Below, piece by piece: positions 17,041 through 63,358 of a stretch of 64,000 nt of DNA. A program made the position numbers and the translations under genes. Source of the stretch: an uncultured Christensenella sp. (GTDB taxonomy: Bacteria > Bacillota > Clostridia > Christensenellales > UBA3700); the NCBI GenBank assembly GCA_949290515.1, contig CASERZ010000003.1, forward strand, positions 2,961 to 66,960. The letters run 5' to 3'. Each line of letters begins with the position of its first letter. Positions within the stretch are counted from its first letter, which is position 1. The notes under the pieces are model-generated. The model was not told where the DNA came from. It made no database searches and was given only the letters and a program-made list of their open reading frames with translations.

Positions 17041-17051
17041 AACATAAAATC

Positions 17052-17086
17052 AAAAAAAAGAAGCGGTTTCCCGCTTCTTTTTTTTG
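17052..17086 (+). terminator. rho-independent terminator
   Basis: A-tract, stem GAAGCGG/CCGCTTC (loop TTTC), then an 8-T run. Confidence 0.8.
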
Positions 17087-17886: not shown

Positions 17887-18014
17887 GCGAGCGCGGAGAG
17901 TGGTGTGATTTTGTGAATTTCTAGCGGTTGTCCCGAATCCCGAGCGTACTTGTCGTACGTAACGGTGAGGGACGTTCCTAAAATTCGCAAAGGCGCGCCG
18001 CTATACGCGGTCGC
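17887..18014 (+). repeat. structured ~125-bp intergenic repeat, unit E
   Basis: Homologous to the units at 62.5-63.3 kb: GCGAGCGCGGAGAGTGGTG..., central GCGTAC-ttgtc-GTACGT, ...GGCGCGCCGC...GCGGTCGC. Internal complementary pairs are GAATTT/AAATTC and GTCCC/GGGAC. It abuts the pilT stop codon. A partial duplicate of its 5' end lies at 17852-17871. Confidence 0.75.
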
Positions 18015-19055
18015 CTATTCAGCGACGTACATCTTATAATCCGAACTGCTGATAAGTCCTCTCTTGTACAAACTCTCGAGACTTTGATTGAGAGTGTACA
18101 TTCCCTGAGGTCCTGAGGTCAGCATCGTATTCTGAATCATATGAAGTCTGTTCTGTCTGATAAGGCTTCGAACTGCAGCATTTCCGACCATTACTTCGGT
18201 GGCAAGCACTCTGCCGTTATGAGAATTGGAGCTGGGAATAAGCTGTTGAGAAACTACGCAGGTCAATACCATCGACAACTGCATTCTGACCTGATTCTGC
18301 TGGTCGGAAGGGAAAGAGTCGATAATTCTGTCGACTGCGTTTACGGCTCCGGTGGTATGCATTGTCGCAAGCACCAAGTGACCCGTTTCTGCCGCGGTAA
18401 GCGCGGTACCTATACTTTCAAGGTCTCTCATTTCGCCCAGAACTATTATGTCGGGGTCTTGTCTCAATACCGCTTTAAGCGCAGCGGCAAAGGAAGGAGT
18501 ATCGTTGTTGATTTCTCTTTGAGTTACGAGACACTGTTCGCTGTCGAATACGAATTCTATAGGGTCTTCGATAGTGATAATATGTCCGCTTCGATGAGTG
18601 TTGATATAATCGAGCACCGTCGCAAGCGTCGTCGTCTTACCGCTACCCGTAGGTCCCGTGATAAGAATAAACCCGCTCTTTTTCATCGACAGTTCTTTAA
18701 GCACTTCGGGAATACCGAGTTGTTTGAAGTCCTTTTTCTCGTCGGAATATCTTCTGATTGCAAGCGACAATCCGTGCATATCCTGATAGGCGTTGCAACG
18801 GCATCTCTTCTTGCCGTCGAGACTGAATGAAAAGTCTACGTCTTTTTCGGTCTCGAGCGTCTGCCTCTGAACGTCGTTGAGAATCAAATCTGCCATCGCA
18901 ATGATGTCTTCGTTGCTGAGTACTCGCGTGCCTACTGCGTTGAGTGCGCCGTTGGTGCGGATGATGCCCAGTCTGCCCGGTTTCAAATGGATATCGGACG
19001 CTTTAGCCTGCTCGGCTTCTGCAATATAGTATCTTAAAAGTTTTGCATAGTCCAT
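18015..19055 (-). CDS. pilT: PilT-family type IV pilus retraction ATPase
   Basis: Walker A GPTGSGKTTTLA, Walker B DPDIIVLGEMRD, His box LVLATMHT. About 346 aa, typical for PilT. RBS GAGGT. Confidence 0.85.
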   Translation of the reverse strand: MDYAKLLRYYIAEAEQAKASDIHLKPGRLGIIRTNGALNAVGTRVLSNEDIIAMADLILNDVQRQTLETEKDVDFSFSLDGKKRCRCNAYQDMHGLSLAIRRYSDEKKDFKQLGIPEVLKELSMKKSGFILITGPTGSGKTTTLATVLDYINTHRSGHIITIEDPIEFVFDSEQCLVTQREINNDTPSFAAALKAVLRQDPDIIVLGEMRDLESIGTALTAAETGHLVLATMHTTGAVNAVDRIIDSFPSDQQNQVRMQLSMVLTCVVSQQLIPSSNSHNGRVLATEVMVGNAAVRSLIRQNRLHMIQNTMLTSGPQGMYTLNQSLESLYKRGLISSSDYKMYVAE

Positions 19056-44377: not shown

Positions 44378-44529
44378 AATTACCTCCTATCATATTGACG
44401 GATTGCCCGCCATATCAATATAAGAATTTAATAAATATCGTATTATATCTTCCGTCGCACTGCGACGCTTGTTGTCGCGTATGAGTTTTCCACGGCGGGC
44501 GGACTTGCCGTCCGCCGTGAGTTTAGTTA

Positions 44530-47500
44530 TCAGACCGTACCTCTTTGTTTTCTCTTCTTAACGGTAACGATTGATGTGATGATTGCCGCTATCATTAGCG
44601 CGCCTACCACGCCGATTACAATCCAGCCTACCAGACCGATATTGCTCTCGTTGATTTGTCCCACCTTAAGTTCCCAGGTATTCTGGAGATAATGGTTGTT
44701 GTCTACCTCGATATATACGGTATATACGCCGTCGGGCAATACGCCGTTCGCGTCAGGCTTGACAAGTGTGAGATTACCGGTTTCTGCACTCTTGGTGTAG
44801 TACAAGAGGTCACCCGTCTTTTCTACGCCGTCAATCGTGTAAGTACCGTAGTACTTGCTTACCGATACTCCCGAAGGAAGCTTGTTGGGCAAAGTAATGT
44901 TTGCGCTGTCTGCGGTGAGTGCCATAGGATAAATTTCGATATAAGTCTGCAAATCGAATGCTTCGTAGTTGTTGACGAATATCGTGATATTTCCGCCGTA
45001 AACTCCCGCGTCGGTTGCGGATACGGTACCGCTGATAAGTGCGTTTACTTCCTTGCCGTGGTCCATATAGTAATAGTTTCCGTCTCTGAACTCCAGTCCG
45101 TTGAAGGTCAGGTAATGTGCCGTACCGTCATAAGTAGCCACTAGCGCGTTTGCGGTAATGTTGAGCTTAGCGTTTGTAATGCTTACGGTAGCCTCGATAT
45201 TGAGAGGCACATAGTTATCTTTGGACATTCTGAGCGTGATTCTGTAATTACCTACGTTAACGCAAGCACCCAGAGCATAGATATCTTCGAGCGAATTGTA
45301 AGCTCTGCCGTTGTAGTAATAGCTAATCGTCGAGCTGTTTCTGTATTCGTCGGGAATAACTTCGGTTACCTTGTAGACCTCTGCGTTGTATACGCCGGAT
45401 ACGCCTGCAAAGGTAACGTTCTGGAATACTGCCTTGTCGATGACCATAGTCACATCGATGGAACAGCTTGCGTAGTTTTCGGTTCCTACATACTCAACTC
45501 TGAACGAATAACTATCAACGTCCATAAACCAGCCGCCGAGTTTGTCCTCGCTCTTATCCACTTCGACGTAAGAGTTTGTTGCATCATCGTAATACTTGAT
45601 TACGATTGCGCCTTCGGTAGGCATAGAGCTATCCCACAATACTTTCTCGTCCGCCGTAGCCTTGACTTCTATCTTTCCTTTGACAACGTCGTAGGTGTGC
45701 TTCTGGTCGTCATAGTTGAAAACGACGGATTCGCCAGTGATTTCTGTCTTTGCTATGTTGACTATGATAAGTCCGAGTTCGCCTGCGTCTTTACCGTAAG
45801 TCTGACCCAAGAAGTAATCGTTTTCTCTGACTACGACTTCTACCTTGTAATAACCTCTCTGCGAAGTATTTGTAGTAGGATTGAGGTCATAGGAGCCGAC
45901 CATTTCTTTCTTTACGCTGTCGTAGTACGCGCCATCGTTGTACTTGTAGTAGTTGATGGTGATATCACCCTCTGCGAAGTACTTCTTCTGTTCTTCGGTG
46001 AGTCCGAGGTCGTAAGTATTGTTGTTTCCGGTATAGTCTACATTGACAACCTTCATCTCGATATTTACGAAGCCCTTGGTGACTGTCATTTCAAAGGTAT
46101 CCATTCCGTCAACCACATAGTTAGCGTCGCCTGTGGATATCTTGTAATTGAACTTACCGATTTTGGTAAATCCTGACATAACTTTATTGTCTTCAACGAA
46201 GGTGTAATCTACCGTAGCATTCTTCGGTTCGCCTGTTATCGCGTCTTTATACGTAGCAGTAATTGCGTGAGTAAGTCCGTCAAACTGTATCTTTGTAGGT
46301 ATGTTGGTCGAGCCGTCGTATCTGAGGTCGACGAATACGGGCAAAGCTACGATTTGAATAGAAGTATTGTTGATTGTTACGTCAATACTGTCGTTTGCAG
46401 TATGAATCTTACCTTCAACTGCATAAGTACCTACGCCTGCGCCCTTCTTTGCATTGGTGATAAGGTCGATTCTCGCTACTTCGTCAGCCGTAATGTTGGC
46501 ATCAACGTAAGTAGGAATATCGTCACCGTAGAAGTACTGAGCGTTGAGGTAATCTGCAAGATTTACGGTTACGCTGAGTTTGGTGATGGCAGCTGCAACC
46601 TTATTGATTGCCTCTGCATTATTCTGATAGTCGCCGCTGAGGTCTGCAAACCATACGTCAAACTTATAGTCGTTGTCACCCTCGAGCACCGCCCACATTC
46701 TGATATTGGTAGAGCCTATGGAAGCTCTCTCGTATTCGAGCACGAGCTTGATGGTAGAGAAGTCAGGGTTAACAACGGTTGCGTTGTAAGCGTCGGTGTT
46801 GACCATTACATAACCGCTTCTTGTCAGGTCGATTTCGAGTTCAGGACCCTTGTAAGCCTGAGTGCTGTCATATACTTTATTAAAGTAATCGGGATCGCCT
46901 GCAAGTAAATCCTTGAGCGAGTTTCCAGCCTTGTCGACAATTGCATCGAGAGAGATATCGATATAGAAGTCAGCCATCTTCATATATACGCAGAATTGAC
47001 CGACAAGTCCGTCTGCAGTACCGTTGGCATATACGTCTTCGTAAAGTCCCTCGTTGTTGACCATCTTTACTCTGAAGTCGGCGGGAGAATAGGTGTTGTA
47101 ATCGCCTATGTTCCAGTCAACCTTGTTGATGAAGTCGCCGTTTACTACCTCGCCCATCTCTTTCCATACGGGGTTGCCGTCTCCGTCAACGCTGTCGCTG
47201 ACATACAAAGTCCAACCGGAATTACCTACTTCTGCTCTGTTCATCAAATTGAAACCGTCCTGGTCGTAAGTGCCGTAATAGAGTGAATATCCGCTTACGC
47301 TTACGTCGAGACTTCCCGCATTGAGGTCAACGAGAGCCTTCATTTCAAACGTAGTTGAGTTGCCGACTACGTCGGTATAGGTAAGGGAATGAGCCTTGTC
47401 ATCGGTCAACGTCAAAGTAACGTTGTACATATTTTTCTCGTCAACGATTTCGTTGGAGATATACGTATTGTTGTCGGAAGCAACTGTCTGCAAACCGCTC

Positions 47501-49932
47501 TTTCCGTTTTCGGTTACGGTAAACGTAACGATAACCTTTTCTTTCTGCCAGCTGTTGAGTATAGCTTCGGTTACTTCGGTACGTACACCTTCGGCATTTT
47601 CCGTAAAGTATCTTACGTCATAGATTTCGGGAGCCTCGTTGTCGATTTTAACCGTCTTGGACGAGCTGACCGCAACTACTACGTAATCTTCCAAAATTTC
47701 GTCGTACTTGTACGCGTAGAAGGTGTACTGCATACCGTTTTTACCGGTACCCTGTCTTGTAATAAACGTCGCAGAGTTGTCGGTATCGGGAACGTTGATT
47801 TGCTCTGACGCGAATACACCGTTTTGTTGATATCTCATCATATCGAAGTCATCGGCTCTGTCCATCTTAAGAGTAAATTTGAATTCTTTCTCCCAGCCTG
47901 TGGACGACGTAGTATTTGCTTCGTCGTATGAGAATACGCCCTGCGTAATCGTAAAGGTATAGTCGGTCTTTGACTGCCAAGCTATCATTCTGTCCGTTTC
48001 GCTGAAGTAGCCGTAGGTATTGGTACCCAGCTTTACAGCCGTACGCATCGAATACGTGCCGGGCATATAAGATTGCTTTATATCGGTAGCATAACCGTCT
48101 CTGTATACTTCCCAGGTGTAATCCTCGGTAGGTTGCTTGTCTCCGCCTACGAAGTTAGCCGTAGGAAGGGAGAGCGCGCCGCCGACACCTTCGTAACCCT
48201 TGGTGTTTTTACCGTTAACGTAGTTGCCGTTGTCGGTATAAGTGATATTGCCCATAGTACCGAATGTGTAATTGAACTTACCGTAGTCGGTAGATTTGAG
48301 CATATAGATTTCTGCATATATGGGCTTATCGACGTCCATATTGATATGGTTGGTCAAAGAGCCGTTTTTATCGAATACTCCCGACCAGATAATCTTACCC
48401 GTCGAGCCTTCAGGCATAAAATACTTATGATAAGCAGTACCCGTGGTGGACATATCGAAGTCGCTGATAGCTTCCTTTTCGTCATCGTGTCCGTCAGCCA
48501 CAGCCTCGATTCTTATATCGTAGAGTACGGTAGAGTTATCGTATCTTACGCTCATCGAGCCGCCCGTGGAAGAAGGATAAATCTCCGTCCAGTTGTCGAT
48601 TTTCTGAGCACTGTCAAGAGTGGTGTACTCTGTACCGCCGTTTTCCTTAGTCAAAAGGTTAAGGTTGTAAAGTACCGCGCAAGACTGCACGTTTTTACCT
48701 ACAAAGTCAAAGAGCAAACCTTTTACTGATTTGTATGTTTTGCCCCAGTTGTCTTCTCTGGTACCCGTCCAGGAGGAGATAATACCCTTTATCTGTCCTT
48801 CGTTTACTTCAGTGGAATCAAATGTAACGTCGCCGTTGATATTTCCGCTGGTAGCGATTGCACCGCCTGCAAAAGACATTTTATCAACGTCTCCGTGCGA
48901 AGTGTTGGAGCAAGCGTATATACGTCCGCCGCCCGTCAAGGCACAGTATTCTACTTTCGCGCTTCCGCTCTGCAACTTACCTATCATACCGCCCGCTGCA
49001 GAACCTGAATTCCAGTGGTCGGTAGGCCAAAATGCAGCTTCACCTTCGACAAAGACTTCTATACCGCCGTCGGTAGAAATATTGACTTGAGAATTAGACA
49101 ATATGCCTGCTGTCATAGCACCTGCTATACCGCCTACGTAACCCGTATTCTGGTAAAGTTTTCTGTCGCCGCCCGGCTTCATATAAAAGTTGAATATGCC
49201 GTTGACGTTGAGACGTATATTGTCGATGGTTCCTTTGTTAAGACCCGTTACGATACCTGCCGAAGCTACTACGCCCGAATCCTGAGGAACGTAAAGCGCG
49301 TTAGGATTGGAAGCCGACTGCGTGATAATATGGTTGGATGAGAAGTCAATCGTCAAGTTTTTGATAGTACCTTGGTTGACTGCGCAAAGATAACCCGTGT
49401 ACCAGTGAGTACCGCCGTTGTCGCCCGTATTGTCTCCGGGATTAGCAAACGAACCGTTACCCGAACCCGCCTCGATAGAAACCTTGTAGCCGTTACCGTC
49501 GAGATATTTGGTAAATACCGAATTAGAGCTGTGTACGCTCACGGTACTGTAACCGGACTTGTTTATGCCCGAGAATGCAATGGCTACGTCGTTGGCAAGA
49601 TATGCGTATTGATACGAACTGTAAGAACCCGAGTTGTTCAGATAATCGTACAGCATCTGACCGTTAGTAATGGTCAAAAGACTGTTGACGTCCGAAAGTC
49701 CTAACTGCGCTGCCAACTGACTCTTGGTATAGTGTCCGTCAACCGCAGCGTCGTCCGTTATCTGTCCGTTGGTACCGTTGTAGCTTGCATACATTAGCGT
49801 CTCTTCCGTTGCCGCGGAAACAACGCTCATCTGCTCTGCACCCAGTGCCGAGGACATTGCTACCGCGAGTACTGCTATGAGCAGTACCGCGATAACGCTG
49901 ATTGAGATTTTAGTAAATGTCTTATTATTCAT
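44530..49932 (-). CDS. giant cell-envelope protein 2 (1800 aa): signal peptide, GLUG-motif region, Ig-like/MBG repeats, C-terminal TM anchor
   Basis: N-terminus MNNKTFTKISISVIAVLLIAVLAVAMSSALG. GLUG-like GGIAGAMTAGILSNS and AGGMIGKLQSG. Many YDG/YNG beta-repeat units. C-terminus GWIVIGVVGALMIAAIITSIVTVKKRKQRGTV (no LPXTG). RBS GGGGGA. Lies 18 nt after the upstream stop. Confidence 0.85.
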   Translation of the reverse strand: MNNKTFTKISISVIAVLLIAVLAVAMSSALGAEQMSVVSAATEETLMYASYNGTNGQITDDAAVDGHYTKSQLAAQLGLSDVNSLLTITNGQMLYDYLNNSGSYSSYQYAYLANDVAIAFSGINKSGYSTVSVHSSNSVFTKYLDGNGYKVSIEAGSGNGSFANPGDNTGDNGGTHWYTGYLCAVNQGTIKNLTIDFSSNHIITQSASNPNALYVPQDSGVVASAGIVTGLNKGTIDNIRLNVNGIFNFYMKPGGDRKLYQNTGYVGGIAGAMTAGILSNSQVNISTDGGIEVFVEGEAAFWPTDHWNSGSAAGGMIGKLQSGSAKVEYCALTGGGRIYACSNTSHGDVDKMSFAGGAIATSGNINGDVTFDSTEVNEGQIKGIISSWTGTREDNWGKTYKSVKGLLFDFVGKNVQSCAVLYNLNLLTKENGGTEYTTLDSAQKIDNWTEIYPSSTGGSMSVRYDNSTVLYDIRIEAVADGHDDEKEAISDFDMSTTGTAYHKYFMPEGSTGKIIWSGVFDKNGSLTNHINMDVDKPIYAEIYMLKSTDYGKFNYTFGTMGNITYTDNGNYVNGKNTKGYEGVGGALSLPTANFVGGDKQPTEDYTWEVYRDGYATDIKQSYMPGTYSMRTAVKLGTNTYGYFSETDRMIAWQSKTDYTFTITQGVFSYDEANTTSSTGWEKEFKFTLKMDRADDFDMMRYQQNGVFASEQINVPDTDNSATFITRQGTGKNGMQYTFYAYKYDEILEDYVVVAVSSSKTVKIDNEAPEIYDVRYFTENAEGVRTEVTEAILNSWQKEKVIVTFTVTENGKSGLQTVASDNNTYISNEIVDEKNMYNVTLTLTDDKAHSLTYTDVVGNSTTFEMKALVDLNAGSLDVSVSGYSLYYGTYDQDGFNLMNRAEVGNSGWTLYVSDSVDGDGNPVWKEMGEVVNGDFINKVDWNIGDYNTYSPADFRVKMVNNEGLYEDVYANGTADGLVGQFCVYMKMADFYIDISLDAIVDKAGNSLKDLLAGDPDYFNKVYDSTQAYKGPELEIDLTRSGYVMVNTDAYNATVVNPDFSTIKLVLEYERASIGSTNIRMWAVLEGDNDYKFDVWFADLSGDYQNNAEAINKVAAAITKLSVTVNLADYLNAQYFYGDDIPTYVDANITADEVARIDLITNAKKGAGVGTYAVEGKIHTANDSIDVTINNTSIQIVALPVFVDLRYDGSTNIPTKIQFDGLTHAITATYKDAITGEPKNATVDYTFVEDNKVMSGFTKIGKFNYKISTGDANYVVDGMDTFEMTVTKGFVNIEMKVVNVDYTGNNNTYDLGLTEEQKKYFAEGDITINYYKYNDGAYYDSVKKEMVGSYDLNPTTNTSQRGYYKVEVVVRENDYFLGQTYGKDAGELGLIIVNIAKTEITGESVVFNYDDQKHTYDVVKGKIEVKATADEKVLWDSSMPTEGAIVIKYYDDATNSYVEVDKSEDKLGGWFMDVDSYSFRVEYVGTENYASCSIDVTMVIDKAVFQNVTFAGVSGVYNAEVYKVTEVIPDEYRNSSTISYYYNGRAYNSLEDIYALGACVNVGNYRITLRMSKDNYVPLNIEATVSITNAKLNITANALVATYDGTAHYLTFNGLEFRDGNYYYMDHGKEVNALISGTVSATDAGVYGGNITIFVNNYEAFDLQTYIEIYPMALTADSANITLPNKLPSGVSVSKYYGTYTIDGVEKTGDLLYYTKSAETGNLTLVKPDANGVLPDGVYTVYIEVDNNHYLQNTWELKVGQINESNIGLVGWIVIGVVGALMIAAIITSIVTVKKRKQRGTV

Positions 49933-49950
49933 AATTCGCTAATCCCCCTG

Positions 49951-52900
49951 TCAACCTTGCGCTCCGCTGTCGGAAGCGGTGTTGATTTGCTGTTTTACTA
50001 CGTGCATCTTAAGCGTGGTTTCGATTGCTATATCGCCGCTGAATACGGTAACCTTTACGCTCATTGCCGCGTTGAAGATTTCTTCTTCAGTAGAAAGCAC
50101 GTTGCCGGCATTGTCTTTGTAAATTATGTTGTTTCCGTCGGAAACTATCAACAAAGTGTATGCATCGTCCGCAGTGTAAGCAAGATTCGAGATGTCAATG
50201 GTACATTCGTAGTTGCCGTTTGTGCCGTCGGTGAAGTAAACGTTGAGATTCTTGACAATCTTCTTCGTCTGCTTCTCGTTCTCGGTAAGGCTGGTACCGC
50301 CCCAAGTAACTACCTGATAGGTATTTACGCCGCCGACAGAGCTGATATCTTCAGCCGTCTTAGCCTTGACGTTTGCGCTGACTCTGAATACCTTCTGACT
50401 TGCGCCCGTACCTGCTATAGCTTTTACGTTATATACGTCGCTTACGGCATAGTTGATTTCGCTCAAATCCCAGGTTACGGGAGTGGTGTAGTTGATTCTT
50501 ACCTCTGTAGAAGTAATGAGTGACTTGTTGTTTGCTACGAAGTCTGCTGCTTCCTTCCACTCCTTGGTAGTGAATACGAAGTCTTTGACTTCTCCGTCTA
50601 CCTCCTGCGAGTAGTTGATGATGTAACTGAAGTAGTAGCTGTAGTCGGAAGTTGCCGCAATGGTGCCCATATTGACGTTTCCGTTTACGGTTACGCTATC
50701 GAGATTAATCGTACCTACCTTCTGATAGAGCAGCAACGTGTCGGTAAATACGCTGTATACTCTGTTGCCGTTTTCGTCATAAGTAAACGTGTAGGAATCT
50801 ACGTCTACGCTCTTGAGGTCGGTTACGAGAGCCGAACGGTCGAGTATCTCTACGTTGACGTCGTAACGGTACGTGTCGGTAATTACCGCGGTTGCGGTCA
50901 TTCCCTTCTGACCTGCCATAGGAACGTAGCCTGCATCCTGATAATCCCATATCCATTCGTGTACGGGAAGTTCTGTCGTCTTGCCCGTATCGTAAACAAC
51001 GGTTACGGTCTCAGGGAATACGCTCTCGCCGTAGTAGTTGACGCGTACGGGGTCGATATAATACGTTCCGCCTGCGTATGCACTACCTGCAAGATTTATG
51101 CCTACGGGATTGAGGTCTTCTACTCTGACGTTTACTGTAATCGTCTGTTCGAAGTCGCCTATTACGCCCGCGAGCTTGCCTTCGTAGTCCATACCGATAC
51201 GAACCTTGAGCTGTGCAAACTGGTTAGCGTACTTGACCTCGAAGTCTTCCGTGCCAATCCACTCGATAGGCATATAGTATACCTTGCCGTTGGTGAATTG
51301 TACGTATGCGTGGTCAGGATAATTTGCCTTGCCGAGTTCTTTGTTGATAAAGTACTCGAAAGGATCGATATAGTACATCGACTGAGTGAGTTTCTCATCG
51401 AAGTAAACCGCCTCGATTTCGTTTCTCATTACTACTACCTGAGTATTGAAGTCCCAAGTGAACGAAGAGTTAGAATACTCTGCATTGTCGAGCGAAACTT
51501 TGATGTTCTGGCTGTTCGTGTTATTGTTATCCCAGCTGAAGTCTATTCCGCTGTAGTCGCCCCAAGTAATCTTTACGTCTTCGCTGTAAGAGTCGATGAT
51601 TTCCTGAGTACCGTCTGCCGACATATACTTGTCATAGTATTCTGCCGTAGCAACGGTGGTGAAAGGATTGTACTGTTCGTCACCCGTAATCAGGTACATA
51701 TAGTATCTGTAAGGGTCAACTCTCAGCGTGTTCTCCAAACCGTTGATTGTGAGTTTTGCAACGTTCTTGGTGTTAACCGTAAAGATGAGTTCTACTCTCT
51801 GCTCGGTAGCACCGCTTCCGATATATGCGTATGCCATAAACTGCGTGCCGCTTACGTTGGTGGAGTATACTCCGTCTTTGTCGAGCGCTCTGTTGAAGAA
51901 CTCGTCAGCACCGACAGCTACCCAGTCTCTGGATACTTCAAGACCGGTGGACAAGCCGTCTGCGTACTTGAAGAATATAGTATCGGATATATAATCGGTT
52001 ATCTTAGTAGATTTAATATTATATTGATACAAATCAATAGTAATTACGTTGCCCGTAGCGCCGTCGATATTGATTTGAGTTACAGTACTGTCAAGATATC
52101 TGAACTCTACGTTTTCGACTACCGTGCCGTTAGCGAATGCAGCCTTACCTGCTACCGTATGCTCAGTATAAGCCTGAGGAGCGTTTTCGCTGAAGGTTAC
52201 GTACTTGGTGTGAATCTTTCTGCTCGTTCCGTCATTGAGATTGATGGTTACGAAGTCAGGCAATTCGTCATATACGTGCATCGAAACAGGGTCGATACTC
52301 TTTATTCCGCCGCCGTCGTCAAGTACTGTGATTATGGTATCAATCGTACGGGTTACGTTGTTAGCGAATGCCGCCGTACCTCTTACTACGTAAGTGCCGG
52401 GAGTATTGAAGTTGAGCTGGTCTATGGTCTTGTCAACCGTAGTACCGTTTTCACTGACAATCTTGAATACTACCGCTGTCTTGTACAATTCCTGCGCCTT
52501 CTGGTAGCTAGCCTGCTTACCGCTGAAGTGTTCACGAATGATTGAAGCTACGCCTTCGGCATTGTTGGTGTACGAATAAGGGTCGTAGGTAATCTGCATA
52601 GGAATACCGTTCCACGTTACGATACCCTCAGGGAAGAGAATTCCACCGTCGTCGCCGTATACGGGTTTACCTACGCTGTCGGAAGTGTTGTACAGCTTAA
52701 TCGAAGTGAAGTAACCGTCTCTGTTGATAACGCTGTTGTTGTTGACGTTACCCTTTCTGCCGCTCTTGGAAGCCGAATATGCAACCTGTCCGTTGGTATC
52801 GTAGATATCCTGTCCCCAGTCGAATCCGTCGATACTTATGTTGGCTATCGTAGCGTCCGCAACTTCCACGTTGACGGTGAGTTCGTTGAATACCGCGAAA

Positions 52901-55900
52901 GGCAATATACCTGCTGTAATATTTCTTACCTGTCCGAGTACGCCGCCTATCAACGCATTAGTGATGAGAGGTGCTACCCAGCCGTATCCCAAAGACGATA
53001 CAAGGTCTCTAAGAATAGGAACGACCTGTTCGCTCAAAGTACCCCAGAAAGATACTCCGTCGTTTGCCTCGCCTTTAAGTTCTCTCGTCCAGTTGACGTA
53101 AGCGAGATAGTTGTCGCTGAACATATCGGGAGCCAATTCAGCAAGATTGAGAACTGTCTTGGGACCGAATACCAAGGACAACATATCGTCGAGGAGTTTG
53201 TTGATAAGATAAGGGTCAAACTCAACGGTTACTCCGAAGTTGCCGTTTGAGAGCAAGCTTGCATTGATACCGCCGCCGAGAAGTGCCACTATGTCGAGAT
53301 TAGCAAAGATTTCATCAAAAGGACTGGGCTCGGTTGCAGTTGTTTCGCCACCGCTCTGAGTGCCATCTCCGGTAGTACCTTCACCCGTAGGAGGTACTTC
53401 GCTGCCACCGTCACCGCTGCCGTCGCCGCTGCCGATACCGTCGAGTGCGTCGTCTATCTGAGCAAACAGATTGTCAAACGTACCGGAAAGCATTCCGACA
53501 AGGTCGAGGTCGAAGGACAAAGCTCCGATGGTATTACCGATATCGACTACGAGATTGATTACGCCCGAACAGATATGGAGAGTCATCTGTTGAGAAGGTT
53601 TGGTATAGTCAAGTATGACGTATATTAAAGGGGTCATCGTACCCTTATTGGAGTTTTCGTATCTCGTGCTGTCTATCTGTGCAAGAGTAATAAGGAAGCA
53701 TCCCTTAGGAACGGTTACCGTATTGGCAAGGTTAGTAAGAGTCTTACTCGTCTGGAGTTTTTCTATGATAACTCTCGTGTACATTGCCTGATTGCTTCCC
53801 TTGGTTACTTCGGTATCGCCCGTAAAGTTAGCTATATCGAGAGTGAAACCTATATTGAGGTTGTCGAGCAAAGCCTTGGTAAACGTCTCGCCGTTGCTAG
53901 CGTCCCAGTCGGGGATAGCATCGTAGTCGATATTTACTACGGGAGACTCGCCGATGGCAAGCTGCATATTGACTTGAGCGGAGATATCCTCTACTCCTAT
54001 GTCAAAGTTAAACGCGTTTCCGCCGAACAAGTCGAGGTCGGCTGCAAGGCTTATATCCATACCGAGATTCATACCCGCAAGGGTATTGATTATCTCTGCA
54101 AAGAGCGCAGCGGTAACGTTGATGGTAATCTTGGTATCTTCGAATCCTACGGCACGCAATACATATTCTATGATATCCATAGTAGTATCGTCGAGAGCCC
54201 CTTCTGCGGATTCTTCGTCCGTAGCAATTTCTACGTCAGTATTGCCGTCTTCTCCGGTACCGGGAAGGGTAGGCAAACCGCTGTCTGCAAGCAAATCGTT
54301 GATTATCTCGTTGAGGTCAAGACCTTGAATGTCGCTTACGATTCCGTCAAGTGCTCCGAACAATTTCGTAATAATGTTGGAATTTGTGATTTCAACCTGG
54401 AAGAATCCGAGACCTTCGAGGTCAATCATAAGGCTGTTACGGTAGATATATACGCCGAATATCTGCTTGCCCTCATAGGACAACGTGAGCACTACCGTGC
54501 TGTTTGCAGTATTCTTAAGGTCGAGATCCCACTGTACAACGAGTTCAACGAAAGAGTTCCAGTCGTCAAGGTCGAGAGTGATAGGCAGCTCGAGTCTGCG
54601 TCCCGCGCTCGCGAGAATATTATTGATAAGCTTGGTGAGGTTCATCTCGTTGTTGAGAGTCTGCAAATCAATCTTTGCTCTTATCGTAGCCTTACCTACG
54701 GTATCAATTATCGCTTGAACGAGGTCGGACTGATATGCCTCGAATTCGCCTATCTTCTGAGCGATATCAAACTTAGCATCGCCGATATCTCCTACTATAA
54801 TAGGATTTTCGTCATCGCCGGCAACAAAGGAGAGGGTCATACCGCTTCCGTAGTTGTATTCTTTGCGAGCATAATCTTCGGGAGCGTAATAAATCTTATT
54901 GCCCTCTTTATCTCTGCAAGGCAGTTTGTTGCCTTCGGCGTCGTAATAGTATACGGCATTGCCCTCAGCATCCTGCATAGGTATCAATTCGCCTGCAAAA
55001 TTGAATTCGAAGCCGTTCTTTCTGCCCATCTCGAAGCTAAGACTGAGTTCCATCAAGCTCAACGCCTCGGCTATAGTCTGACCGAGTTCTGTCTGAGTCT
55101 GAGAAAGAATGGAAAGTATAGCAGCAAGAGATACGGTTGCGTATATCTTGTCGCAGTTGAGACCGAATATTATAGCTTGCAACTCTTCTTCGGGCACTTC
55201 GGAAGTGCTTCCGTCGCCGGTCGAACCTGCTTCGTCTGCAAGATATGCCGTAGCTGCCGCAGAAGCGTCTGCGCTTTCTCCGGGCGTCTTGTTAAGTCCG
55301 AGAAGCTCTACGAGGTCAAAGTCAAAAGGCAAATTGCTGTCCATTCCGGCTCCCTCGAGCAGGTCACCCAAAGTCGAACCCAACAAATTGTATACCAAAT
55401 CGGTAAAGTTGAGAGAGAAGTTGAGCTTAGGCAAGGTTATACTTGCTATCTTGAAGTTGGATACATCTATGAATATTTGATTCTGATATCCGTAAATACC
55501 CAAAATTACAGTATCAGCAGGGATAATGGAAGTACCGCCGACTTTAATACCGGTGAGCGTCTTAAGTTCTACCACTATCTGACTGTTGTACGCATCTAAG
55601 CTGTCAAGCGCTATCTGAACGTTGAGCTGAGCGTCCAAAGTAAAGTTTTCGGTAAACGTCCACAGCATCTCGGTCTGAGCAAGCTGAGATACTCCGAAAC
55701 CTGCTATGAAAGGAGCAAGGTCGTATGTACCCTTATTGAAATTGAGAGTAATTCTACTGCTCATAGTAATTCCGCCGAGTATCTTGTCAAGCAAGCCTTT
55801 TCTTTCTTTATCGGAGAAGAGGGAGTCAGCATAACTCGTATTTTCGAGGTTTACTCTGTCAGCAATATATACGCTGAGATTTTCTTTTGCCGTTCCGATG

Positions 55901-57858
55901 AGGAAATCCCATATCTTGAGTTCTACGTCAAACGCAGGGTCGCTCTCGCCGTCGAGAACTGCCGCGTTTACTTTGACGCTGTCAAGACCTATATCCGAGA
56001 AGTTTACGGAGAGTACTATATCGGAGATATAGTCAGGGAAAGCAAAATTTATAGGTTGAGGATTGGTTTCGTTCTTAAGCAAATTATTGAGCGAAGAAAG
56101 GAAATCATTGTTGAGAATAATGTCGATTGAGTCATTGTCCGCAACTATATTCTCAGGCAACATCAGCAATTCGCCGATAACCTGTACAAATCTCTGCACC
56201 CCTGCTGATACGTAAATCTTGCCGTCCTCTCCCTCGCTGAGAGCAACTACGGAAGTGCCGCTTGCTTTTGCGCTGGAAAGAAGCTTGAGTACGTCAGCCC
56301 CGGAAGTGGTGGAAAGCTGTCCGTTATCCTCGACTTTCACATTGAGATTGCCGTTTTTGATATCGTCATAGCTAGTGCCGAATACTCCGTCAATCGCTTC
56401 GGTAACAAGGTCAACGATCGCATTGATGAGGTCGGACAAACCTGCATTAACCTTAAGGTTAACACCCTTCATATAGTCGGGAAGCAATCTGTCGAGATTG
56501 AGATAGAAGCTGCCCTCGGTATAGTAAATACCCATCTGAGGTACGGGTTGACCGCCCTCGAGCTCCTGATAATTACCGAACTGGTCGATAAGATAGAGTT
56601 CGATAGCAATCTTGTTGTTATCGACAGGCTTTCTGTCATAGTTAAGGTCGAGGTCCAATGCGAATTTCAACCTCAATCCCGTACCGCCTTCGAGCAGCAA
56701 TACGTCGAGAGGCAGTATGTTTTGTCCCATAAAGCCGTTGATAATCTTGCCGACGTCAAGCTGAGTCTTAGAGCCGTCGGGATTAATTCTCGTACCGAGC
56801 GTTAAGTCAATGGTAAAATTGATATTCGTAAGCGAAAATTCGCTAATCTCCATTTCGTCGATTGCGGGAATGGTCATATCACAGGGGGTATTACCCAAGT
56901 CCAAAGACAATTCGACCTTGTTAGTTTCTCCGTCACTGTGAGCTACCGAATCCAAATCCATATCGGTGAGCTTACCGTCAGCATCGAAGTCCGCGTCGAT
57001 ATAGAAATCAGCCTCAGGCACTACTTCAAGGAGATAGTTGAATATAATATTCAAATCCAAAGGAAGGTCGCCCAAATCAAACGCACCCAGAATACCGCTT
57101 GCGTTTTGCAGCAAATCTCTGAGCTTAATCTTCATACGTATGTTTTCGAGTACCTTGGTCTCCGAATTGTAAGTAGCGACAGGGTCCTCAAAAAGCAAAC
57201 CTATTACAAGACTCAATACGTCATCTATCGTCAAGCCCAAACTTTCGTCCAGCAAATCGTTGAGCATATCAATTAAATCGCCGAACAATTCAGGACTTTC
57301 CTTCATCATAGCGATGAGATAATTCATATCGAAGTCCGACAAATACAACAACGCTCTGTCATTGCCGAGTTCGTCTTTTCCGAGGTCTAAGTACGCCTTG
57401 CCATTGACTACGTAGAGAGCGAATTTCATAACTCTGCTTTCGTCAGGCTGGTCCTTGCCCTGCAGATATACGCCGAGCACCAACTCGTTCTTGACAGTAT
57501 CAAACAAGTTGACCTGGAACAACAGAGTGATTATCTCGTTGGTATCAGGCTTGTCGATTTTTACCTCGAAGTCGACACTCATCGTATCTTCTTCAGGACT
57601 GTCGGCGCCGTTGGCAATCTTGTTCAAGGCGTCATTCGGCGACATATAGGCAGGCACGTCGTCTTCTTCGTCTTCGTCACCGTCGTCGGGGGGACCATCA
57701 GGTCCGTCAGGCGGTCCCTGATTTTCGTCGCCGCTTACGTCTCCGCTAGGGTTTTCTTCTCCCTCGCCGAAGAGGTCGCACGCCGCAAAGAGCGACGAGA
57801 GCGCGAGTACAAAAATCATCACTAAAATTGTCAAAACTATAAGTTTAGATTTTCTCAT
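49951..57858 (-). CDS. giant lipoprotein 1 (2635 aa): lipobox, acidic linker, ~1650 aa of unassigned repeated modules, ~950 aa of Ig-like beta-sandwich repeats
   Basis: Start MRKSKLIVLTILVMIFVLALSSLFAAC at 57858 follows GGAGAGGAAATT. Acidic Pro/Asp/Glu linker. See findings for module structure. The C-terminal part has repeated P-x-TVTV-x-Y-x-(D/T)G...V-x-W-type units. Confidence 0.8.
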   Translation of the reverse strand: MRKSKLIVLTILVMIFVLALSSLFAACDLFGEGEENPSGDVSGDENQGPPDGPDGPPDDGDEDEEDDVPAYMSPNDALNKIANGADSPEEDTMSVDFEVKIDKPDTNEIITLLFQVNLFDTVKNELVLGVYLQGKDQPDESRVMKFALYVVNGKAYLDLGKDELGNDRALLYLSDFDMNYLIAMMKESPELFGDLIDMLNDLLDESLGLTIDDVLSLVIGLLFEDPVATYNSETKVLENIRMKIKLRDLLQNASGILGAFDLGDLPLDLNIIFNYLLEVVPEADFYIDADFDADGKLTDMDLDSVAHSDGETNKVELSLDLGNTPCDMTIPAIDEMEISEFSLTNINFTIDLTLGTRINPDGSKTQLDVGKIINGFMGQNILPLDVLLLEGGTGLRLKFALDLDLNYDRKPVDNNKIAIELYLIDQFGNYQELEGGQPVPQMGIYYTEGSFYLNLDRLLPDYMKGVNLKVNAGLSDLINAIVDLVTEAIDGVFGTSYDDIKNGNLNVKVEDNGQLSTTSGADVLKLLSSAKASGTSVVALSEGEDGKIYVSAGVQRFVQVIGELLMLPENIVADNDSIDIILNNDFLSSLNNLLKNETNPQPINFAFPDYISDIVLSVNFSDIGLDSVKVNAAVLDGESDPAFDVELKIWDFLIGTAKENLSVYIADRVNLENTSYADSLFSDKERKGLLDKILGGITMSSRITLNFNKGTYDLAPFIAGFGVSQLAQTEMLWTFTENFTLDAQLNVQIALDSLDAYNSQIVVELKTLTGIKVGGTSIIPADTVILGIYGYQNQIFIDVSNFKIASITLPKLNFSLNFTDLVYNLLGSTLGDLLEGAGMDSNLPFDFDLVELLGLNKTPGESADASAAATAYLADEAGSTGDGSTSEVPEEELQAIIFGLNCDKIYATVSLAAILSILSQTQTELGQTIAEALSLMELSLSFEMGRKNGFEFNFAGELIPMQDAEGNAVYYYDAEGNKLPCRDKEGNKIYYAPEDYARKEYNYGSGMTLSFVAGDDENPIIVGDIGDAKFDIAQKIGEFEAYQSDLVQAIIDTVGKATIRAKIDLQTLNNEMNLTKLINNILASAGRRLELPITLDLDDWNSFVELVVQWDLDLKNTANSTVVLTLSYEGKQIFGVYIYRNSLMIDLEGLGFFQVEITNSNIITKLFGALDGIVSDIQGLDLNEIINDLLADSGLPTLPGTGEDGNTDVEIATDEESAEGALDDTTMDIIEYVLRAVGFEDTKITINVTAALFAEIINTLAGMNLGMDISLAADLDLFGGNAFNFDIGVEDISAQVNMQLAIGESPVVNIDYDAIPDWDASNGETFTKALLDNLNIGFTLDIANFTGDTEVTKGSNQAMYTRVIIEKLQTSKTLTNLANTVTVPKGCFLITLAQIDSTRYENSNKGTMTPLIYVILDYTKPSQQMTLHICSGVINLVVDIGNTIGALSFDLDLVGMLSGTFDNLFAQIDDALDGIGSGDGSGDGGSEVPPTGEGTTGDGTQSGGETTATEPSPFDEIFANLDIVALLGGGINASLLSNGNFGVTVEFDPYLINKLLDDMLSLVFGPKTVLNLAELAPDMFSDNYLAYVNWTRELKGEANDGVSFWGTLSEQVVPILRDLVSSLGYGWVAPLITNALIGGVLGQVRNITAGILPFAVFNELTVNVEVADATIANISIDGFDWGQDIYDTNGQVAYSASKSGRKGNVNNNSVINRDGYFTSIKLYNTSDSVGKPVYGDDGGILFPEGIVTWNGIPMQITYDPYSYTNNAEGVASIIREHFSGKQASYQKAQELYKTAVVFKIVSENGTTVDKTIDQLNFNTPGTYVVRGTAAFANNVTRTIDTIITVLDDGGGIKSIDPVSMHVYDELPDFVTINLNDGTSRKIHTKYVTFSENAPQAYTEHTVAGKAAFANGTVVENVEFRYLDSTVTQINIDGATGNVITIDLYQYNIKSTKITDYISDTIFFKYADGLSTGLEVSRDWVAVGADEFFNRALDKDGVYSTNVSGTQFMAYAYIGSGATEQRVELIFTVNTKNVAKLTINGLENTLRVDPYRYYMYLITGDEQYNPFTTVATAEYYDKYMSADGTQEIIDSYSEDVKITWGDYSGIDFSWDNNNTNSQNIKVSLDNAEYSNSSFTWDFNTQVVVMRNEIEAVYFDEKLTQSMYYIDPFEYFINKELGKANYPDHAYVQFTNGKVYYMPIEWIGTEDFEVKYANQFAQLKVRIGMDYEGKLAGVIGDFEQTITVNVRVEDLNPVGINLAGSAYAGGTYYIDPVRVNYYGESVFPETVTVVYDTGKTTELPVHEWIWDYQDAGYVPMAGQKGMTATAVITDTYRYDVNVEILDRSALVTDLKSVDVDSYTFTYDENGNRVYSVFTDTLLLYQKVGTINLDSVTVNGNVNMGTIAATSDYSYYFSYIINYSQEVDGEVKDFVFTTKEWKEAADFVANNKSLITSTEVRINYTTPVTWDLSEINYAVSDVYNVKAIAGTGASQKVFRVSANVKAKTAEDISSVGGVNTYQVVTWGGTSLTENEKQTKKIVKNLNVYFTDGTNGNYECTIDISNLAYTADDAYTLLIVSDGNNIIYKDNAGNVLSTEEEIFNAAMSVKVTVFSGDIAIETTLKMHVVKQQINTASDSGAQG

Positions 57859-57911
57859 AATTTCCTCTCCTATATTAGTAAATTTATAGTGCACACCTAT
57901 TTTAAAAACGG

Positions 57912-60553: not shown

Positions 60554-60583
60554 ATTATAACACACCCTGTAACGGTTTAGCAA
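60554..60583 (-). promoter_or_regulatory. candidate promoter of the two-component operon (TTGCTA-18 nt-TGtTATAAT, extended -10)
   Basis: Minus strand reads TTGCTAaaccgttacagggtgTGTTATAAT, about 45 nt upstream of the regulator ATG. Confidence 0.45.
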
Positions 60584-61263
60584 TAACAAAATAAAACAGT
60601 ATCAAACTATATCCCGCTTGACGCAAAGCTCTTACATTAAGCGTATAAAAAATCTTTTGATTACATTGAATTGATATCCGTTTTGTGAATATTTTATTCT
60701 CCTGTCAAACGCAGTTTTTTCAAACTTGTAGCGATTTTGTTTTGAACACGAATAAAATTGTCAATATCTCTCTGTCCTCTTTTCATAAAAACCCGGACAA
60801 AAGTTTTGCGTTTTTTGCAAATCTGTTTTGGTATCGGCGCCCGCATTTTCGCCGTCTCTTTTGCGCCTCTCGAAAAACACCTTTCTAGCCCGCTAATTTA
60901 TCAAAAACCGCTTTATTTACTGATATATTTTCCACCTTATGTTTTTATATACCGCTTGCAATAAAAATAGACTGTAACAGATAAAATAAACGTTTATAAG
61001 TTCCCGCCTTTTTCTCAACCTGAAACTTTTATTTTGAATGCACTTTTAGCGCGGCAATTTTCTTTGCGCGCGCCGATACGCGCTCACGGACGTTACACAA
61101 AGTTAATCTCTCTTGCTTTTGCAACCGTTATGTCCATAAATTTTTAGCCAGATATTTACTCTGTTTTAAGGCTATTACTTTTGAATTTTTATTTATGTAA
61201 ACCTCAACAAACGTCTTTGAAAAAAAGTTTTTCCTTAACTTTTTTTAAGTTTGAATAGCCCCG

Positions 61264-61296
61264 TATAAAATCCGCCGCCCGTGCAATCGGGCGGCG
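61264..61296 (-). terminator. candidate terminator downstream of the NlpC/P60 gene
   Basis: CCGCCGCCCG-tgcaat-CGGGCGGCG. On the minus strand it is followed by ATTTTATAC. Confidence 0.5.
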
Positions 61297-61378
61297 ACAG
61301 TGCGCAATCTTTACGGCAAGGCTATGCTTGTTTCTCGCGCCTTTTGCCTGCCTGTTCAAGATTGATTGAGCAATATCA

Positions 61379-62242
61379 CTATACCAGTCTCTTGGCTACT
61401 ATAAAGTACTTCCATCTCGTGCTGCTAATCTCTTCGATTACCGCAAAATCGCTTGCCGTATGCAGTATGTAGTTATCTCCGAGATAGAGCGCGACGTGTC
61501 CTATTCTTTCAACTCCGCTGAGATTATACCTCGACGAATTCGTGAAAAACATCAAATCGCCTCTCTGCAAATCCCCGCTCACGACCTCTCTTCCTTGCAG
61601 TACCTGAGTACGTGTCGTCAAATCGAGGTTTATGTTTGCTCCGTGATAATATATATACTGCATTAAAGCCGAGCAATCGTACTCTCCTTGCACAAAATTG
61701 GAATTGAGCTTTCCGTTGCCCCAGTGATAACGCTGACTGCCCCATACGTAAGGATAACCCATAAGCGTTTCGCCTATCGCGATTACACTTTCTACTTTTT
61801 CGTTGCTTTGCGTCATTTTCACTATGTAGGCATAATTGTTACCCGCATAAACGTAAGCTGTCTTTTGCTTATATACGGTCTTATACCAACCGTTTACCTC
61901 TCCTTCAAAACGCAGCATATCGCCTTTATCCATTTTACCTACTATCGTCGCTCCGGTATTCGGTGCAGAACGGATATTGAGCGATGACGTGTTGCTCTTA
62001 ATCATATACGAATAGCTTACGGCGGGAGCTAGCGTATCTTCGTTGTCGGGAGTTTCTTCCTCGTCCTTCTCATCGTCCGACCCGTCTTCGGGAAGAGAGG
62101 GAAGTCCGCCCTCGGGCTGGAACTTATCCCAGTCCACAACCCAGTCTTTTTCACCTGCAGGAGTCGCGCACGCCGCAAAAGTAAAGGCGCAAATAAGCGT
62201 ACACAACAAAACGGTGATACTTGTTTTCGTCAGTCTTTTCAT
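61379..62242 (-). CDS. SH3b-NlpC/P60 peptidoglycan endopeptidase lipoprotein
   Basis: Lipobox LICAFTFAAC. Acidic linker. SH3-like LNIRSAPNTGATIVGKMDKGDML...GWYKV. Catalytic DCSALMQYIY and GHVALYLG. RBS AGGAGG. Confidence 0.85.
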   Translation of the reverse strand: MKRLTKTSITVLLCTLICAFTFAACATPAGEKDWVVDWDKFQPEGGLPSLPEDGSDDEKDEEETPDNEDTLAPAVSYSYMIKSNTSSLNIRSAPNTGATIVGKMDKGDMLRFEGEVNGWYKTVYKQKTAYVYAGNNYAYIVKMTQSNEKVESVIAIGETLMGYPYVWGSQRYHWGNGKLNSNFVQGEYDCSALMQYIYYHGANINLDLTTRTQVLQGREVVSGDLQRGDLMFFTNSSRYNLSGVERIGHVALYLGDNYILHTASDFAVIEEISSTRWKYFIVAKRLV

Positions 62243-62525
62243 ATATACGACCTCCTTTGTCTTTTGTACTTACATTTTAGCAGAGGAGGGCAGGGGAGGG
62301 CAATGCACAAAATTTTCCAATTAGGCGAGCGCGTATAGCGGCGCGTTCGCTCACCTCGACGAAATACCCACGCTTCCGAAGTGTCGAAAGCGTAAGGCAA
62401 AATGTCGGGTTCGCTCTATACCGACCAAACGAAACGGTGTATATTCGACAAGCGAATAAAACCGTTTGTCGGTACTGTCTTCAAGCGGATAGCGCAATTG
62501 ATAATCGAAACAGACAGATATCCCG

Positions 62526-62649
62526 CGCGCTTGGAGATTGGCGGAGAGTTAGTTTTTTTGCGGTTAAGCGCGACGGGAGCATACTAGCCGTATGTGACCT
62601 AGCGCGCACACCGCACAAAAAGCTAAATATGCGCCGATATACAAGCGCG
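62526..62649 (+). repeat. structured intergenic repeat, unit D
   Basis: Nested complementary pairs: CGCGCTTG/CAAGCGCG (outer), TTAGTTTTTTTGCGG/CCGCACAAAAAGCTAA (middle), GCATAC-tagcc-GTATGT (central). Confidence 0.8.
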
Positions 62650-62702
62650 TAAGACGTGCGTATATATGCCCGCACATATACGCATACACACGTTGGAAAC
62701 TT

Positions 62703-62741
62703 AATTTATACAATTTAAGCCTTATGTAAATTGTATAAATT
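62703..62741 (-). repeat. 39-bp hairpin repeat, copy 5 (loop AGCCTTATG, i.e. inverted orientation)
   Basis: Arms are identical to copies 1, 3 and 4. Followed by the ATTATATTATAATATATAT AT-rich flank, as at copy 1. Confidence 0.9.
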
Positions 62742-62884
62742 ATTATATTATAATATATATATGGTATTTGACTTTGCTTATAGCGCGCATTTACGGCAAG
62801 CGAAAAAGGAAAATATAATTACTTACTTCGTGCGAGTGTCGCAGATAAAGGCAAAATATGCGCCGCTAGTATTACATACTTCGT

Positions 62885-63010
62885 GCGACCGCAGAGATTG
62901 GTGCAGAGTTGCGATTTTGAAGAGAGTTCGCGAGCGGCGCGTACTAGACGTACGTAACTAACGTGGGCGTAGTGAGGATAAAGGCTAAAAGTGTGCCGCT
63001 AAATATTACT
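62885..63010 (+). repeat. structured intergenic repeat, unit A (5' half identical to unit C, divergent 3' half)
   Basis: 62876-62935 is identical to 63166-63225. Central CGTAC-taga-CGTACG. The 3' half no longer complements the 5' middle helix. An internally deleted copy lies at 62824-62875. Confidence 0.75.
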
Positions 63011-63042
63011 ATACTAATAAATAATTTATTACAAAACTTCGT

Positions 63043-63156
63043 GCGAGCGCGGAGAGTGGTGCAGAGTTTGTCTTTTCCAGACTGAGCGCGACAGGCGCAT
63101 ACTTTGCGTATGTAACTGAGCGCGAGCGTCGCAGATAAAAGGAAAAGGCGCGCCGC
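63043..63156 (+). repeat. structured intergenic repeat, unit B
   Basis: Middle helix CTTTTCC/GGAAAAG. Central GCATAC-tttgc-GTATGT. The ends GCGAGCGCGG...GGCGCGCCGC are shared with unit E. Confidence 0.75.
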
Positions 63157-63174
63157 TAGTATTACATACTTCGT

Positions 63175-63300
63175 GCGACCGCAGAGATTGGTGCAGAGTT
63201 GCGATTTTGAAGAGAGTTCGCGAATGAGCGTACTTGTCGTACGTGACTGAGCGCAACTACTCGCGCAAAATCGCAAATATGTGCCGATATATGCGGTCGC
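63175..63300 (+). repeat. structured intergenic repeat, unit C
   Basis: Outer GCGACCGCA/TGCGGTCGC (9 bp). Middle TTGCGATTTTG/CAAAATCGCAA (11 bp). CGCGA/TCGCG. Central GCGTAC-ttgtc-GTACGT. Confidence 0.8.
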
Positions 63301-63311
63301 CTAAAAAAAGG

Positions 63312-63340
63312 TTGTCTTTATTAAATATTAATGCTATAAT
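63312..63340 (+). promoter_or_regulatory. candidate promoter (TTGTCT-17 nt-TGcTATAAT, extended -10)
   Basis: Located 19 nt upstream of the ATG at 63359, so the leader would be short. Confidence 0.45.
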
Positions 63341-63358
63341 TATCACCGAGGAAAAAAT

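Follow-up and report, generated by a model that had tools for sequence, protein, structure and literature searches.

The window analysed here, 64,000 nucleotides (nt) from an uncultured Christensenella sp. (contig CASERZ010000003.1, assembly GCA_949290515.1), carries an array of hairpin repeats in the 1116-nt spacer between an NlpC/P60+SH3 gene (61379–62242, − strand) and a DUF815 gene (63359 onwards, + strand). These repeats, lettered A to G within the window (Table 1), represent a new, previously undescribed family with many copies that is restricted to one taxon, the Christensenellales. Its helices covary, its copies are gained or lost between close strains, and its units insert within one another at TA positions, either in the TATA loop or at the CGTACG tip of the resident unit, giving rise to same-orientation arrays. 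Copies usually lie immediately after a stop codon, and their folding strand is antisense to the gene concerned. With roughly even confidence, we interpret the family as non-autonomous mobile hairpins resembling miniature inverted-repeat transposable elements (MITEs) or REPINs, which were perhaps co-opted at gene 3′ ends.

The anatomy of the unit was derived by applying RNAalifold to 86 aligned full copies. A unit measures ~125–137 nt and consists of a short 5′ tail and a single long imperfect hairpin. The outermost helix, H1, has 8–9 variable base pairs (bp) and is followed by an invariant 4×4 internal loop, in which GAGA lies opposite TATA. Next comes H2, a helix of 8 bp (GUGGUGYR/YRCGCCGC) that keeps U·G at two positions; a second small loop separates it from H3, which is variable and about 7–11 bp long. 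The inner part is subfamily-specific, and the tip is formed by a hairpin (GCGTAC-5 nt-GTACGT) with a conserved G·U closing pair. H1, H3 and the inner stems vary freely, provided that pairing holds. The stems that the initial annotation had quoted for C, B and D proved to be as described. Its conserved 'single-stranded' segments, GAGATTGG and ATATGYGCCG, are half paired: TTGG/GTGG and CCGA/CCGC form a fourth helix, the overlooked H2, which has covariation of its own, and only GAGA and TATA are unpaired there. A compensatory switch is visible within H2 of the window units, with T-A in C and D and G-C in B and F. The pairs closing the GAGA/TATA loop occur in two coupled states, G-GAGA-G...C-TATA-C or A-GAGA-T...A-TATA-T. 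Both states are found in many genomes, even among orthologous copies; in the window, B and F contrast with C in this respect, and D is a mixture of the two.

A covariance model (R1), as the initial annotation had proposed building, retrieved 145 copies at E<1e-8. Across these copies, standard pairs occupy 91.4% of the paired cells, compared with 73.8±0.4% in shuffles and 23–51% in a control in which the 3′ partners were slid. Changes on both sides of a pair were counted in 772 cells (241±21 in shuffles), and double changes are present at 26 of 30 pairs. The complementarity that had been noted among the window units despite their sequence changes holds across the 145 copies. The 145-copy alignment was fitted to the model, which favours the structure; MAFFT/RNAalifold on the seed alignment gave the same covariation pattern, and coordinated changes were also found among 13 orthologous copies behind one gene. 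Paralogous and orthologous together, the 145 copies make up a large natural data set on the compensatory evolution of one hairpin.

The hairpin is strand-specific. The + strand of the element was the more stable one in 86/86 copies, with a mean minimum free energy (MFE) of −65.4 versus −46.6 kcal/mol, a difference of ~19 kcal/mol. The paired columns contain 607 instances of G·U and 77 of A·C; when three conserved G·U pairs are subtracted, the counts are 240 and 74. Folds with DNA parameters gave −35 to −41 kcal/mol for the + strand and −23 to −31 kcal/mol for the other. Within the window, the RNA MFE is −69.8 kcal/mol for D (z −8.5) and −66.4 kcal/mol for C (z −7.3), well outside what chance would give. 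The values for the reverse complements are no lower than −55 and −50 kcal/mol; DNA parameters rank the strands alike. This strongly supports the + strand as the folding strand, which the G-U closing pairs had hinted at from the outset. A mutational artefact was rejected as the cause of the asymmetry: known deamination biases of the sense or leading strand predict G·T on the opposite strand, and the three G·U pairs are conserved family-wide. Selection on a single-stranded form of the + strand is therefore the better explanation. The + strand transcript that had been suggested along with the folding strand is not supported. Sigma-70-like promoters are not enriched upstream of the copies (4%, against 6–7% in controls), which speaks against promoters belonging to the elements themselves, and at most sites the strand transcribed from the neighbouring gene would be the − strand.

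A two-anchor pattern scan with one genome per species matched at least 107 loci, four of which look like chance. The remaining matches listed come from about 25 metagenome-assembled genomes (MAGs) of Christensenellaceae, Christensenella and unclassified Clostridia from gut and rumen. The window is ~94% identical to MAG CALWHJ01, and the blocks fetched from that MAG hold at least about 30 copies. Searching Rfam 15 with the window and 18 divergent loci, a check already suggested by the initial annotation, returned no match at gathering scores and none of relevance at E≤10. PLSDB plasmids, GenBank phages and IMG/VR gave no match either, and literature searches found no account of the hairpin family. 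Christensenellales are prominent and heritable members of the human gut community, and their genomes are almost unexplored for non-coding features. Several public contigs (L122–L126, L057, L066 and L089 in our numbering of loci) end within or beside the repeats, indicating that the family fragments MAG assemblies.

The position of the copies follows a rule that the initial annotation had missed, namely that the 3′ end of the element lies at the stop codon of a convergent gene. When arrays were collapsed, 61 of 74 sites had a gene of the opposite strand beside the 3′ end. In 69 of 140 copies the stop codon, read in reverse, begins −4 to +5 nt from the last H1 pair, and in 10 others it lies within the TATA loop. 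After collapsing the convergent genes by protein family, 56 of 85 independent families had their stop in the range of −14 to +6 nt from H1. Because the 3′ end abuts this stop, the folding strand is antisense to the convergent gene. The genes preceding the elements have housekeeping functions (for example pilT, ffh, pfk and glnA). No stop codon adjoins the 5′ end of any copy, although about 20% of copies would be expected to show this; orientation thus follows the gene and not replication direction alone, and replication as the sole determinant was ruled out. GC skew, an indirect measure, assigns the folding strand to the leading-strand template at 62 of 73 loci as well as in the window. Among the abutting genes, TAA and TAG are favoured over TGA (81% versus 60% in control genes), and lysine makes up 15.7% of the C-terminal residues (8.5% in controls). 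Such Lys-rich gene ends produce T-rich sequence after the hairpin on the + strand, and the first 9 nt past the hairpin contain 4.13 T compared with 3.36 (p=0.002).

Comparison of strains revealed sites with and without the element. The pilT site, filled by unit F in the window, is empty in strains with a 95% identical PilT. PilT ends in ...YVAE in both alleles; the stop is TAA when the site is empty, and TAG followed at once by the element when it is filled. At loci L026 and L102, a unit with a very different H1 (GCCGTAA/TTACGGC) lies inside a copy of a second repeat family, element 2, of which at least eight other copies are uninterrupted between CCGAC and CAAACG and provide clean empty sites. 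The NlpC/P60–DUF815 spacer measures 580, 708, 754, 1036 or 1116 nt among strains with an identical NlpC/P60 protein. Their arrays differ in unit content and end in every case in a unit with matched arms; D is missing from L117, L120 and L026, and in L118 half of it is deleted. Arrays that are hypervariable between strains could serve as typing markers.

The junctions within arrays show how units are nested. In the window's own subfamily, labelled BRZ-type after the BRZ MAGs carrying it, the junction reads GCGCCGC-TATA-TTACNNACTNNGT-H1, such that the next unit follows the TATA loop of the preceding one; the 5′ extension TAGTATTACATACTTCGT of the window units is of this form, TA plus TTACNNACTNNGT. 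Behind the inserted unit, the host unit's displaced 3′ arm was found at several places. In a rumen subfamily, upstream partial units stop at the TA of the tip CGTACG. The search for target-site duplications that had been recommended gave a mixed answer: TA is present at the 5′ flank of 16 of 25 BRZ-type units, at the 3′ flank of 19 and at both flanks of 12, with a background of 9%, and the clean filled/empty site has either no duplication or one of (C)AAA. The possibility that H1 is a pre-existing host hairpin stem that received the core was rejected, as H1 keeps a CGA...TCG frame across copies and neither of its arms derives from the target at the clean site.

Element 2 is ~145 nt long, lies at 62344–62490 of the window and has its own stem (TACCGACCAAACG/CGTTTGTCGGTA); copies that are 85–99% identical occur in L028, L030, L096, L102 (two), L104 and L117–L124, and it is partly duplicated in strain L120. 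One subfamily only has the junction TAGTATTAC or TAATATTAC (window 62867–62875 and 63157–63165; L020 4105–4113). These equal the Rep nick-site nonanucleotides of circoviruses and geminiviruses and contain TTAC, the IS608 target, a resemblance that is perhaps coincidental and that we rejected as an explanation.

The proposal of the initial annotation, a MITE/REP/Correia/BOX-like family that it did not recognise, fits elements that are multicopy, dispersed, arrayed and polymorphic between strains and that have no Rfam match; the structured-RNA transcript that it offered as an alternative is disfavoured by the promoter counts. For the mobile family that we favour, movement or maintenance would involve a single-stranded + strand intermediate and an enzyme encoded elsewhere in the genome, with TA as the preferred target. 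A trans-acting protein would presumably recognise the GAGA/TATA loop, H2 and the CGTAC tip hairpin; identifying the reader of that internal loop would reveal either a novel mobilisation system or a novel control element of gene ends. Choice of TA-rich targets together with selection could then lie behind the stop-codon position, possibly with a secondary use of the hairpin at 3′ ends. For the placement and the fixed orientation, possible causes are a preference for the TA-rich surroundings of stops combined with purifying selection, harm done by the stronger hairpin inside an mRNA, and a secondary role in blocking antisense transcription.

A number of observations weigh against mobility as the whole explanation. 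Each of the three stop codons occurs at the elements, and orientation relative to the gene is fixed, for which TA targeting alone is insufficient. The strand asymmetry is not an expected product of a DDE cut-and-paste MITE, and the leading-strand-template position, inferred indirectly from GC skew, is opposite to the rule for IS200/IS605. Copies persist at orthologous sites across species, which also fits a functional element. The cognate transposase that the initial annotation had suggested looking for (RAYT or IS200/IS605-type) was not detected: phmmer with IS608 TnpA and E. coli RayT as queries found no Y1/RAYT homologue in ~830 kb around the copies, which is weak evidence. The window is without a transposase or integrase. 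The 140 neighbouring open reading frames (ORFs) include no recurrent transposase family and represent housekeeping genes, and in the loci examined there are no half-elements flanking an ORF and no autonomous parent insertion sequence (IS). ORFs enclosed by inverted element pairs (L041, L088) have no transposase domains. The sole recurrent protein family beside the elements was set aside, being an orthologous 908-amino-acid (aa) surface-protein locus shared by related MAGs.

Close known systems include REPINs and REP (repetitive extragenic palindrome) sequences mobilised with RAYT (Y1 HUH) transposases (Bertels & Rainey 2011, PMC3116915), which share several features with the family: extragenic hairpins of ~100 nt in many copies, dispersed and in tandem clusters, with two inverted arms, compensatory stem changes, vertical persistence and a presumed single-stranded, strand-specific substrate. 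Unlike REPINs, the hairpin family conserves internal loops, H2 and the tip instead of two terminal REP arms, yielded no RAYT near any copy within the ~830 kb searched, and is placed strictly at stop codons in a single orientation. The conserved GTAG at the 5′ end of REP class 1 is not seen in column counts of the 145 copies. As in a MITE, terminal inverted repeats are present (H1, and indeed the whole hairpin), but the terminal sequence differs among copies, and the loci examined hold no autonomous parent with the same ends. IS200/IS605 elements have distinct left and right subterminal hairpins and their active strand on the lagging-strand template, whereas each unit here is one continuous hairpin on, by the same indirect measure, the leading-strand template.

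Correia (NEMIS) and ERIC/IRU elements are likewise imperfect palindromes of 100–150 nt near gene ends; Correia elements also have TA at both flanks, and orientation-dependent effects of ERIC on neighbouring mRNAs have been reported. Their sequences are unrelated to the hairpin family, which has a Firmicutes host and a strong G·U strand asymmetry, and they keep their terminal inverted-repeat sequence, whereas the terminal helix described here varies and covaries. MIRUs of mycobacteria are oriented intergenic tandem repeats that overlap, at their ends, the upstream gene's stop codon, but they are direct repeats with short ORFs co-oriented with the operon and not long antisense-folding hairpins. 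The ssoA-type single-strand origins of rolling-circle plasmids are strand-specific single-stranded DNA hairpins of 130–200 nt with conserved unpaired motifs, also from Firmicutes; these origins are plasmid-borne and single copy, and the hairpin family had no counterpart in PLSDB. We have not found the combination of strand-specific folding and antisense stop-codon placement described for REP, REPIN, ERIC, Correia or BOX elements. The data do not establish the family as a member of REP-RAYT, of the IS200/IS605 derivatives, of the integron attC sites or of any Rfam family.

The other explanations that we considered are compatible with a mobile origin. One is a gene-end RNA module that acts as a terminator or insulator. 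Transcription arriving from downstream of the gene's 3′ end would form the + strand hairpin just before the gene, and a U-rich tract supplied by the antisense of the stop and Lys codons would help to block antisense read-in, with a weaker − strand hairpin in the gene's own 3′ untranslated region. The distance between stop and H1, the T excess past the hairpin, the C-terminal lysines, the preference for TAA and TAG, the positions kept across species and head-to-head element pairs between convergent genes all agree with such a module, which we nevertheless regard as unlikely. An intrinsic terminator combines a GC-rich hairpin with a U tract directly behind it; here the T excess on the + strand is mild, and the window's subfamily is poor in U tracts (e.g. 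CCUAUUCAGC). The − strand has a direct T tail in just 9 of 136 copies; a separate terminator lies beyond the element in 40 of 136 (about a third). At 34 of 74 sites, the genes on either side of the element are co-directional, and a convergent transcript is not to be expected there. Invariant internal loops and conserved G·U pairs are not needed by a terminator, and arrays of truncated units and nested insertions would be left unexplained.

A further, rather improbable reading is a distinct kind of gene-end module, namely a strand-specific hairpin that some gene-end-sensing mechanism delivers to stop codons, or retains there, in a single orientation. Candidate routes are single-strand insertion coupled to termination or transcription, or an attC-like recombination of Firmicutes, with the hairpin shielding 3′ ends. 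We give slightly less credence to multicopy genes for structured small RNAs, whose + strand transcripts would act in trans or bind a protein. The strong covariation, the conserved G·U pairs and unpaired GAGA/UAUA motifs, and a promoter-like site upstream of the window array are what such genes might show; yet promoters are not enriched across the family, no terminator lies at the 3′ end, which leads into the neighbouring gene, truncation or nesting affects many units, strains differ in which copies they have, and Rfam holds no relative. Least probable are attC-like sites of an unrecognised cassette system with a site-specific recombinase acting on the single-stranded hairpin, which would share with integron attC the cassette-like geometry (folded strand antisense to the preceding ORF, start at or overlapping its stop, leading-strand template) and the maintenance of structure while stem sequence varies, but the alignment consensus is without the R″/R′ core sites (RYYYAAC...GTTRRRY), there is no integrase in the window or among the neighbours, and the units are dispersed behind housekeeping genes or in tandem with no intervening ORF, not in ORF–attC cassette arrays.

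The layout of the window array (62290–63350) is largely as first described, with D, A, B, C and the deleted E on the + strand of the spacer; the end of B is now placed at 63158. D and C are intact, A and B are without the 3′ outer arm, and a 22-nt reverse-oriented remnant is present in addition. The array is no assembly artefact, because an independent assembly, L119, carries a spacer identical over 1116 nt; this concern had been raised at the outset. The family is not confined to the spacer: local BLAST, nhmmer and later the covariance model located two further copies, F and G, at 17.7–18.0 kb. The spacer array, sitting between divergent genes, is atypical for the family, and F, whose 3′ end is directly at pilT (18015–19055, − strand), is the typical case. 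E had been credited with a CGTAC/GTACG central stem, which it does not have. A is a chimera as proposed; its 5′ half matches C at 91% across 82 nt, with about the first 56 nt reading as identical, and its 3′ half is B/E-like. A and B are not merely degenerate: their H1 3′ arm is absent just as in internal units of other arrays; B terminates in ...GCCGCTA and continues directly into the 5′ extension of C. The remnant has a longer version at the orthologous locus L026.

Table 1. Hairpin units and associated features of the window. Positions refer to the 64,000-nt stretch.
Feature	Position	Strand	Score or remark
Unit C, intact reference copy	63175–63300	+	covariance model 128.5 bits
C: H1	63175–63183 pairing with 63292–63300	+	
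C: GAGA/TATA loop	63184–63187 with 63288–63291	+	
C: H2	63188–63195 pairing with 63280–63287	+	T·G pairs included
C: second loop GAG/ATA	between H2 and H3	+	
C: H3	63199–63209 pairing with 63266–63276	+	
C: tip hairpin	63228–63244	+	G·T closing pair
Unit D, intact	62526–62649	+	103.6 bits; own H1 (CGCGCTTG/CAAGCGCG) and own H3
Unit B	63043–63158	+	H2, H3 and tip hairpin present; H1 3′ arm absent
Unit A, chimera	62885–~63010	+	64 bits; H1 3′ arm absent
Unit E, B-like	62824–62875	+	internally deleted, with short GCGAG repeats bounding the deletion
Junction and 5′ extension TAGTATTACATACTTCGT	63157–63174; again 62867–62884	+	
Remnant, 22 nt	62316–62337	−	H2 3′ arm, loop and H1 3′ arm; reverse-oriented
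Unit F, intact	17887–18014	+	113.5 bits; 3′ end against pilT stop codon
Unit G, degenerate	17707–17827	+	27 bits; upstream of F
Promoter-like TTTACG-18-TATAAT	62790–62819	+	just upstream of E; local, not family-general

Upstream of F, a 37-nt local duplication (17845–17881) comprises the 5′ extension and the first 7 nt of H1; it is absent in the ortholog L057. In L108–L113, the strains with 95% identical PilT, positions 2700–3800 hold an ORF of 366–367 aa with no Pfam hit between pilT and a 489-aa gene. The window has G and F in its place (17040–18015).

The spacers appear to collect several repeat families. The very AT-rich stretch between D and E contains a 13-nt inverted repeat, TGCGTATATATGC/GCACATATACGCA (62657–62684), and a perfect 16-nt inverted repeat, TAATTTATACAATTTA/TAAATTGTATAAATTA (62702–62742), both of which are kept in sister strains. 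In other genomes, a further short repeat, GAGATTTCTC(C/G)AC...CG..TCGAAATGAC or its reverse complement, lies beside the hairpin elements, in the 5′ flanks of those at L100, L011, L038, L004, L075, L099, L002 and L036.

Elsewhere in the window, three consecutive giant ORFs of 1917, 1800 and 2647 aa occupy 38624–57894 on the − strand. Pfam recognises next to nothing in them apart from an MBG_2 domain and, weakly, Big_4; they are probably surface proteins. Between the response-regulator gene and the NlpC/P60 gene, 823 nt (60556–61378) contain no long ORF and gave no Rfam hit; a counterpart of equal size is present in sister strains.

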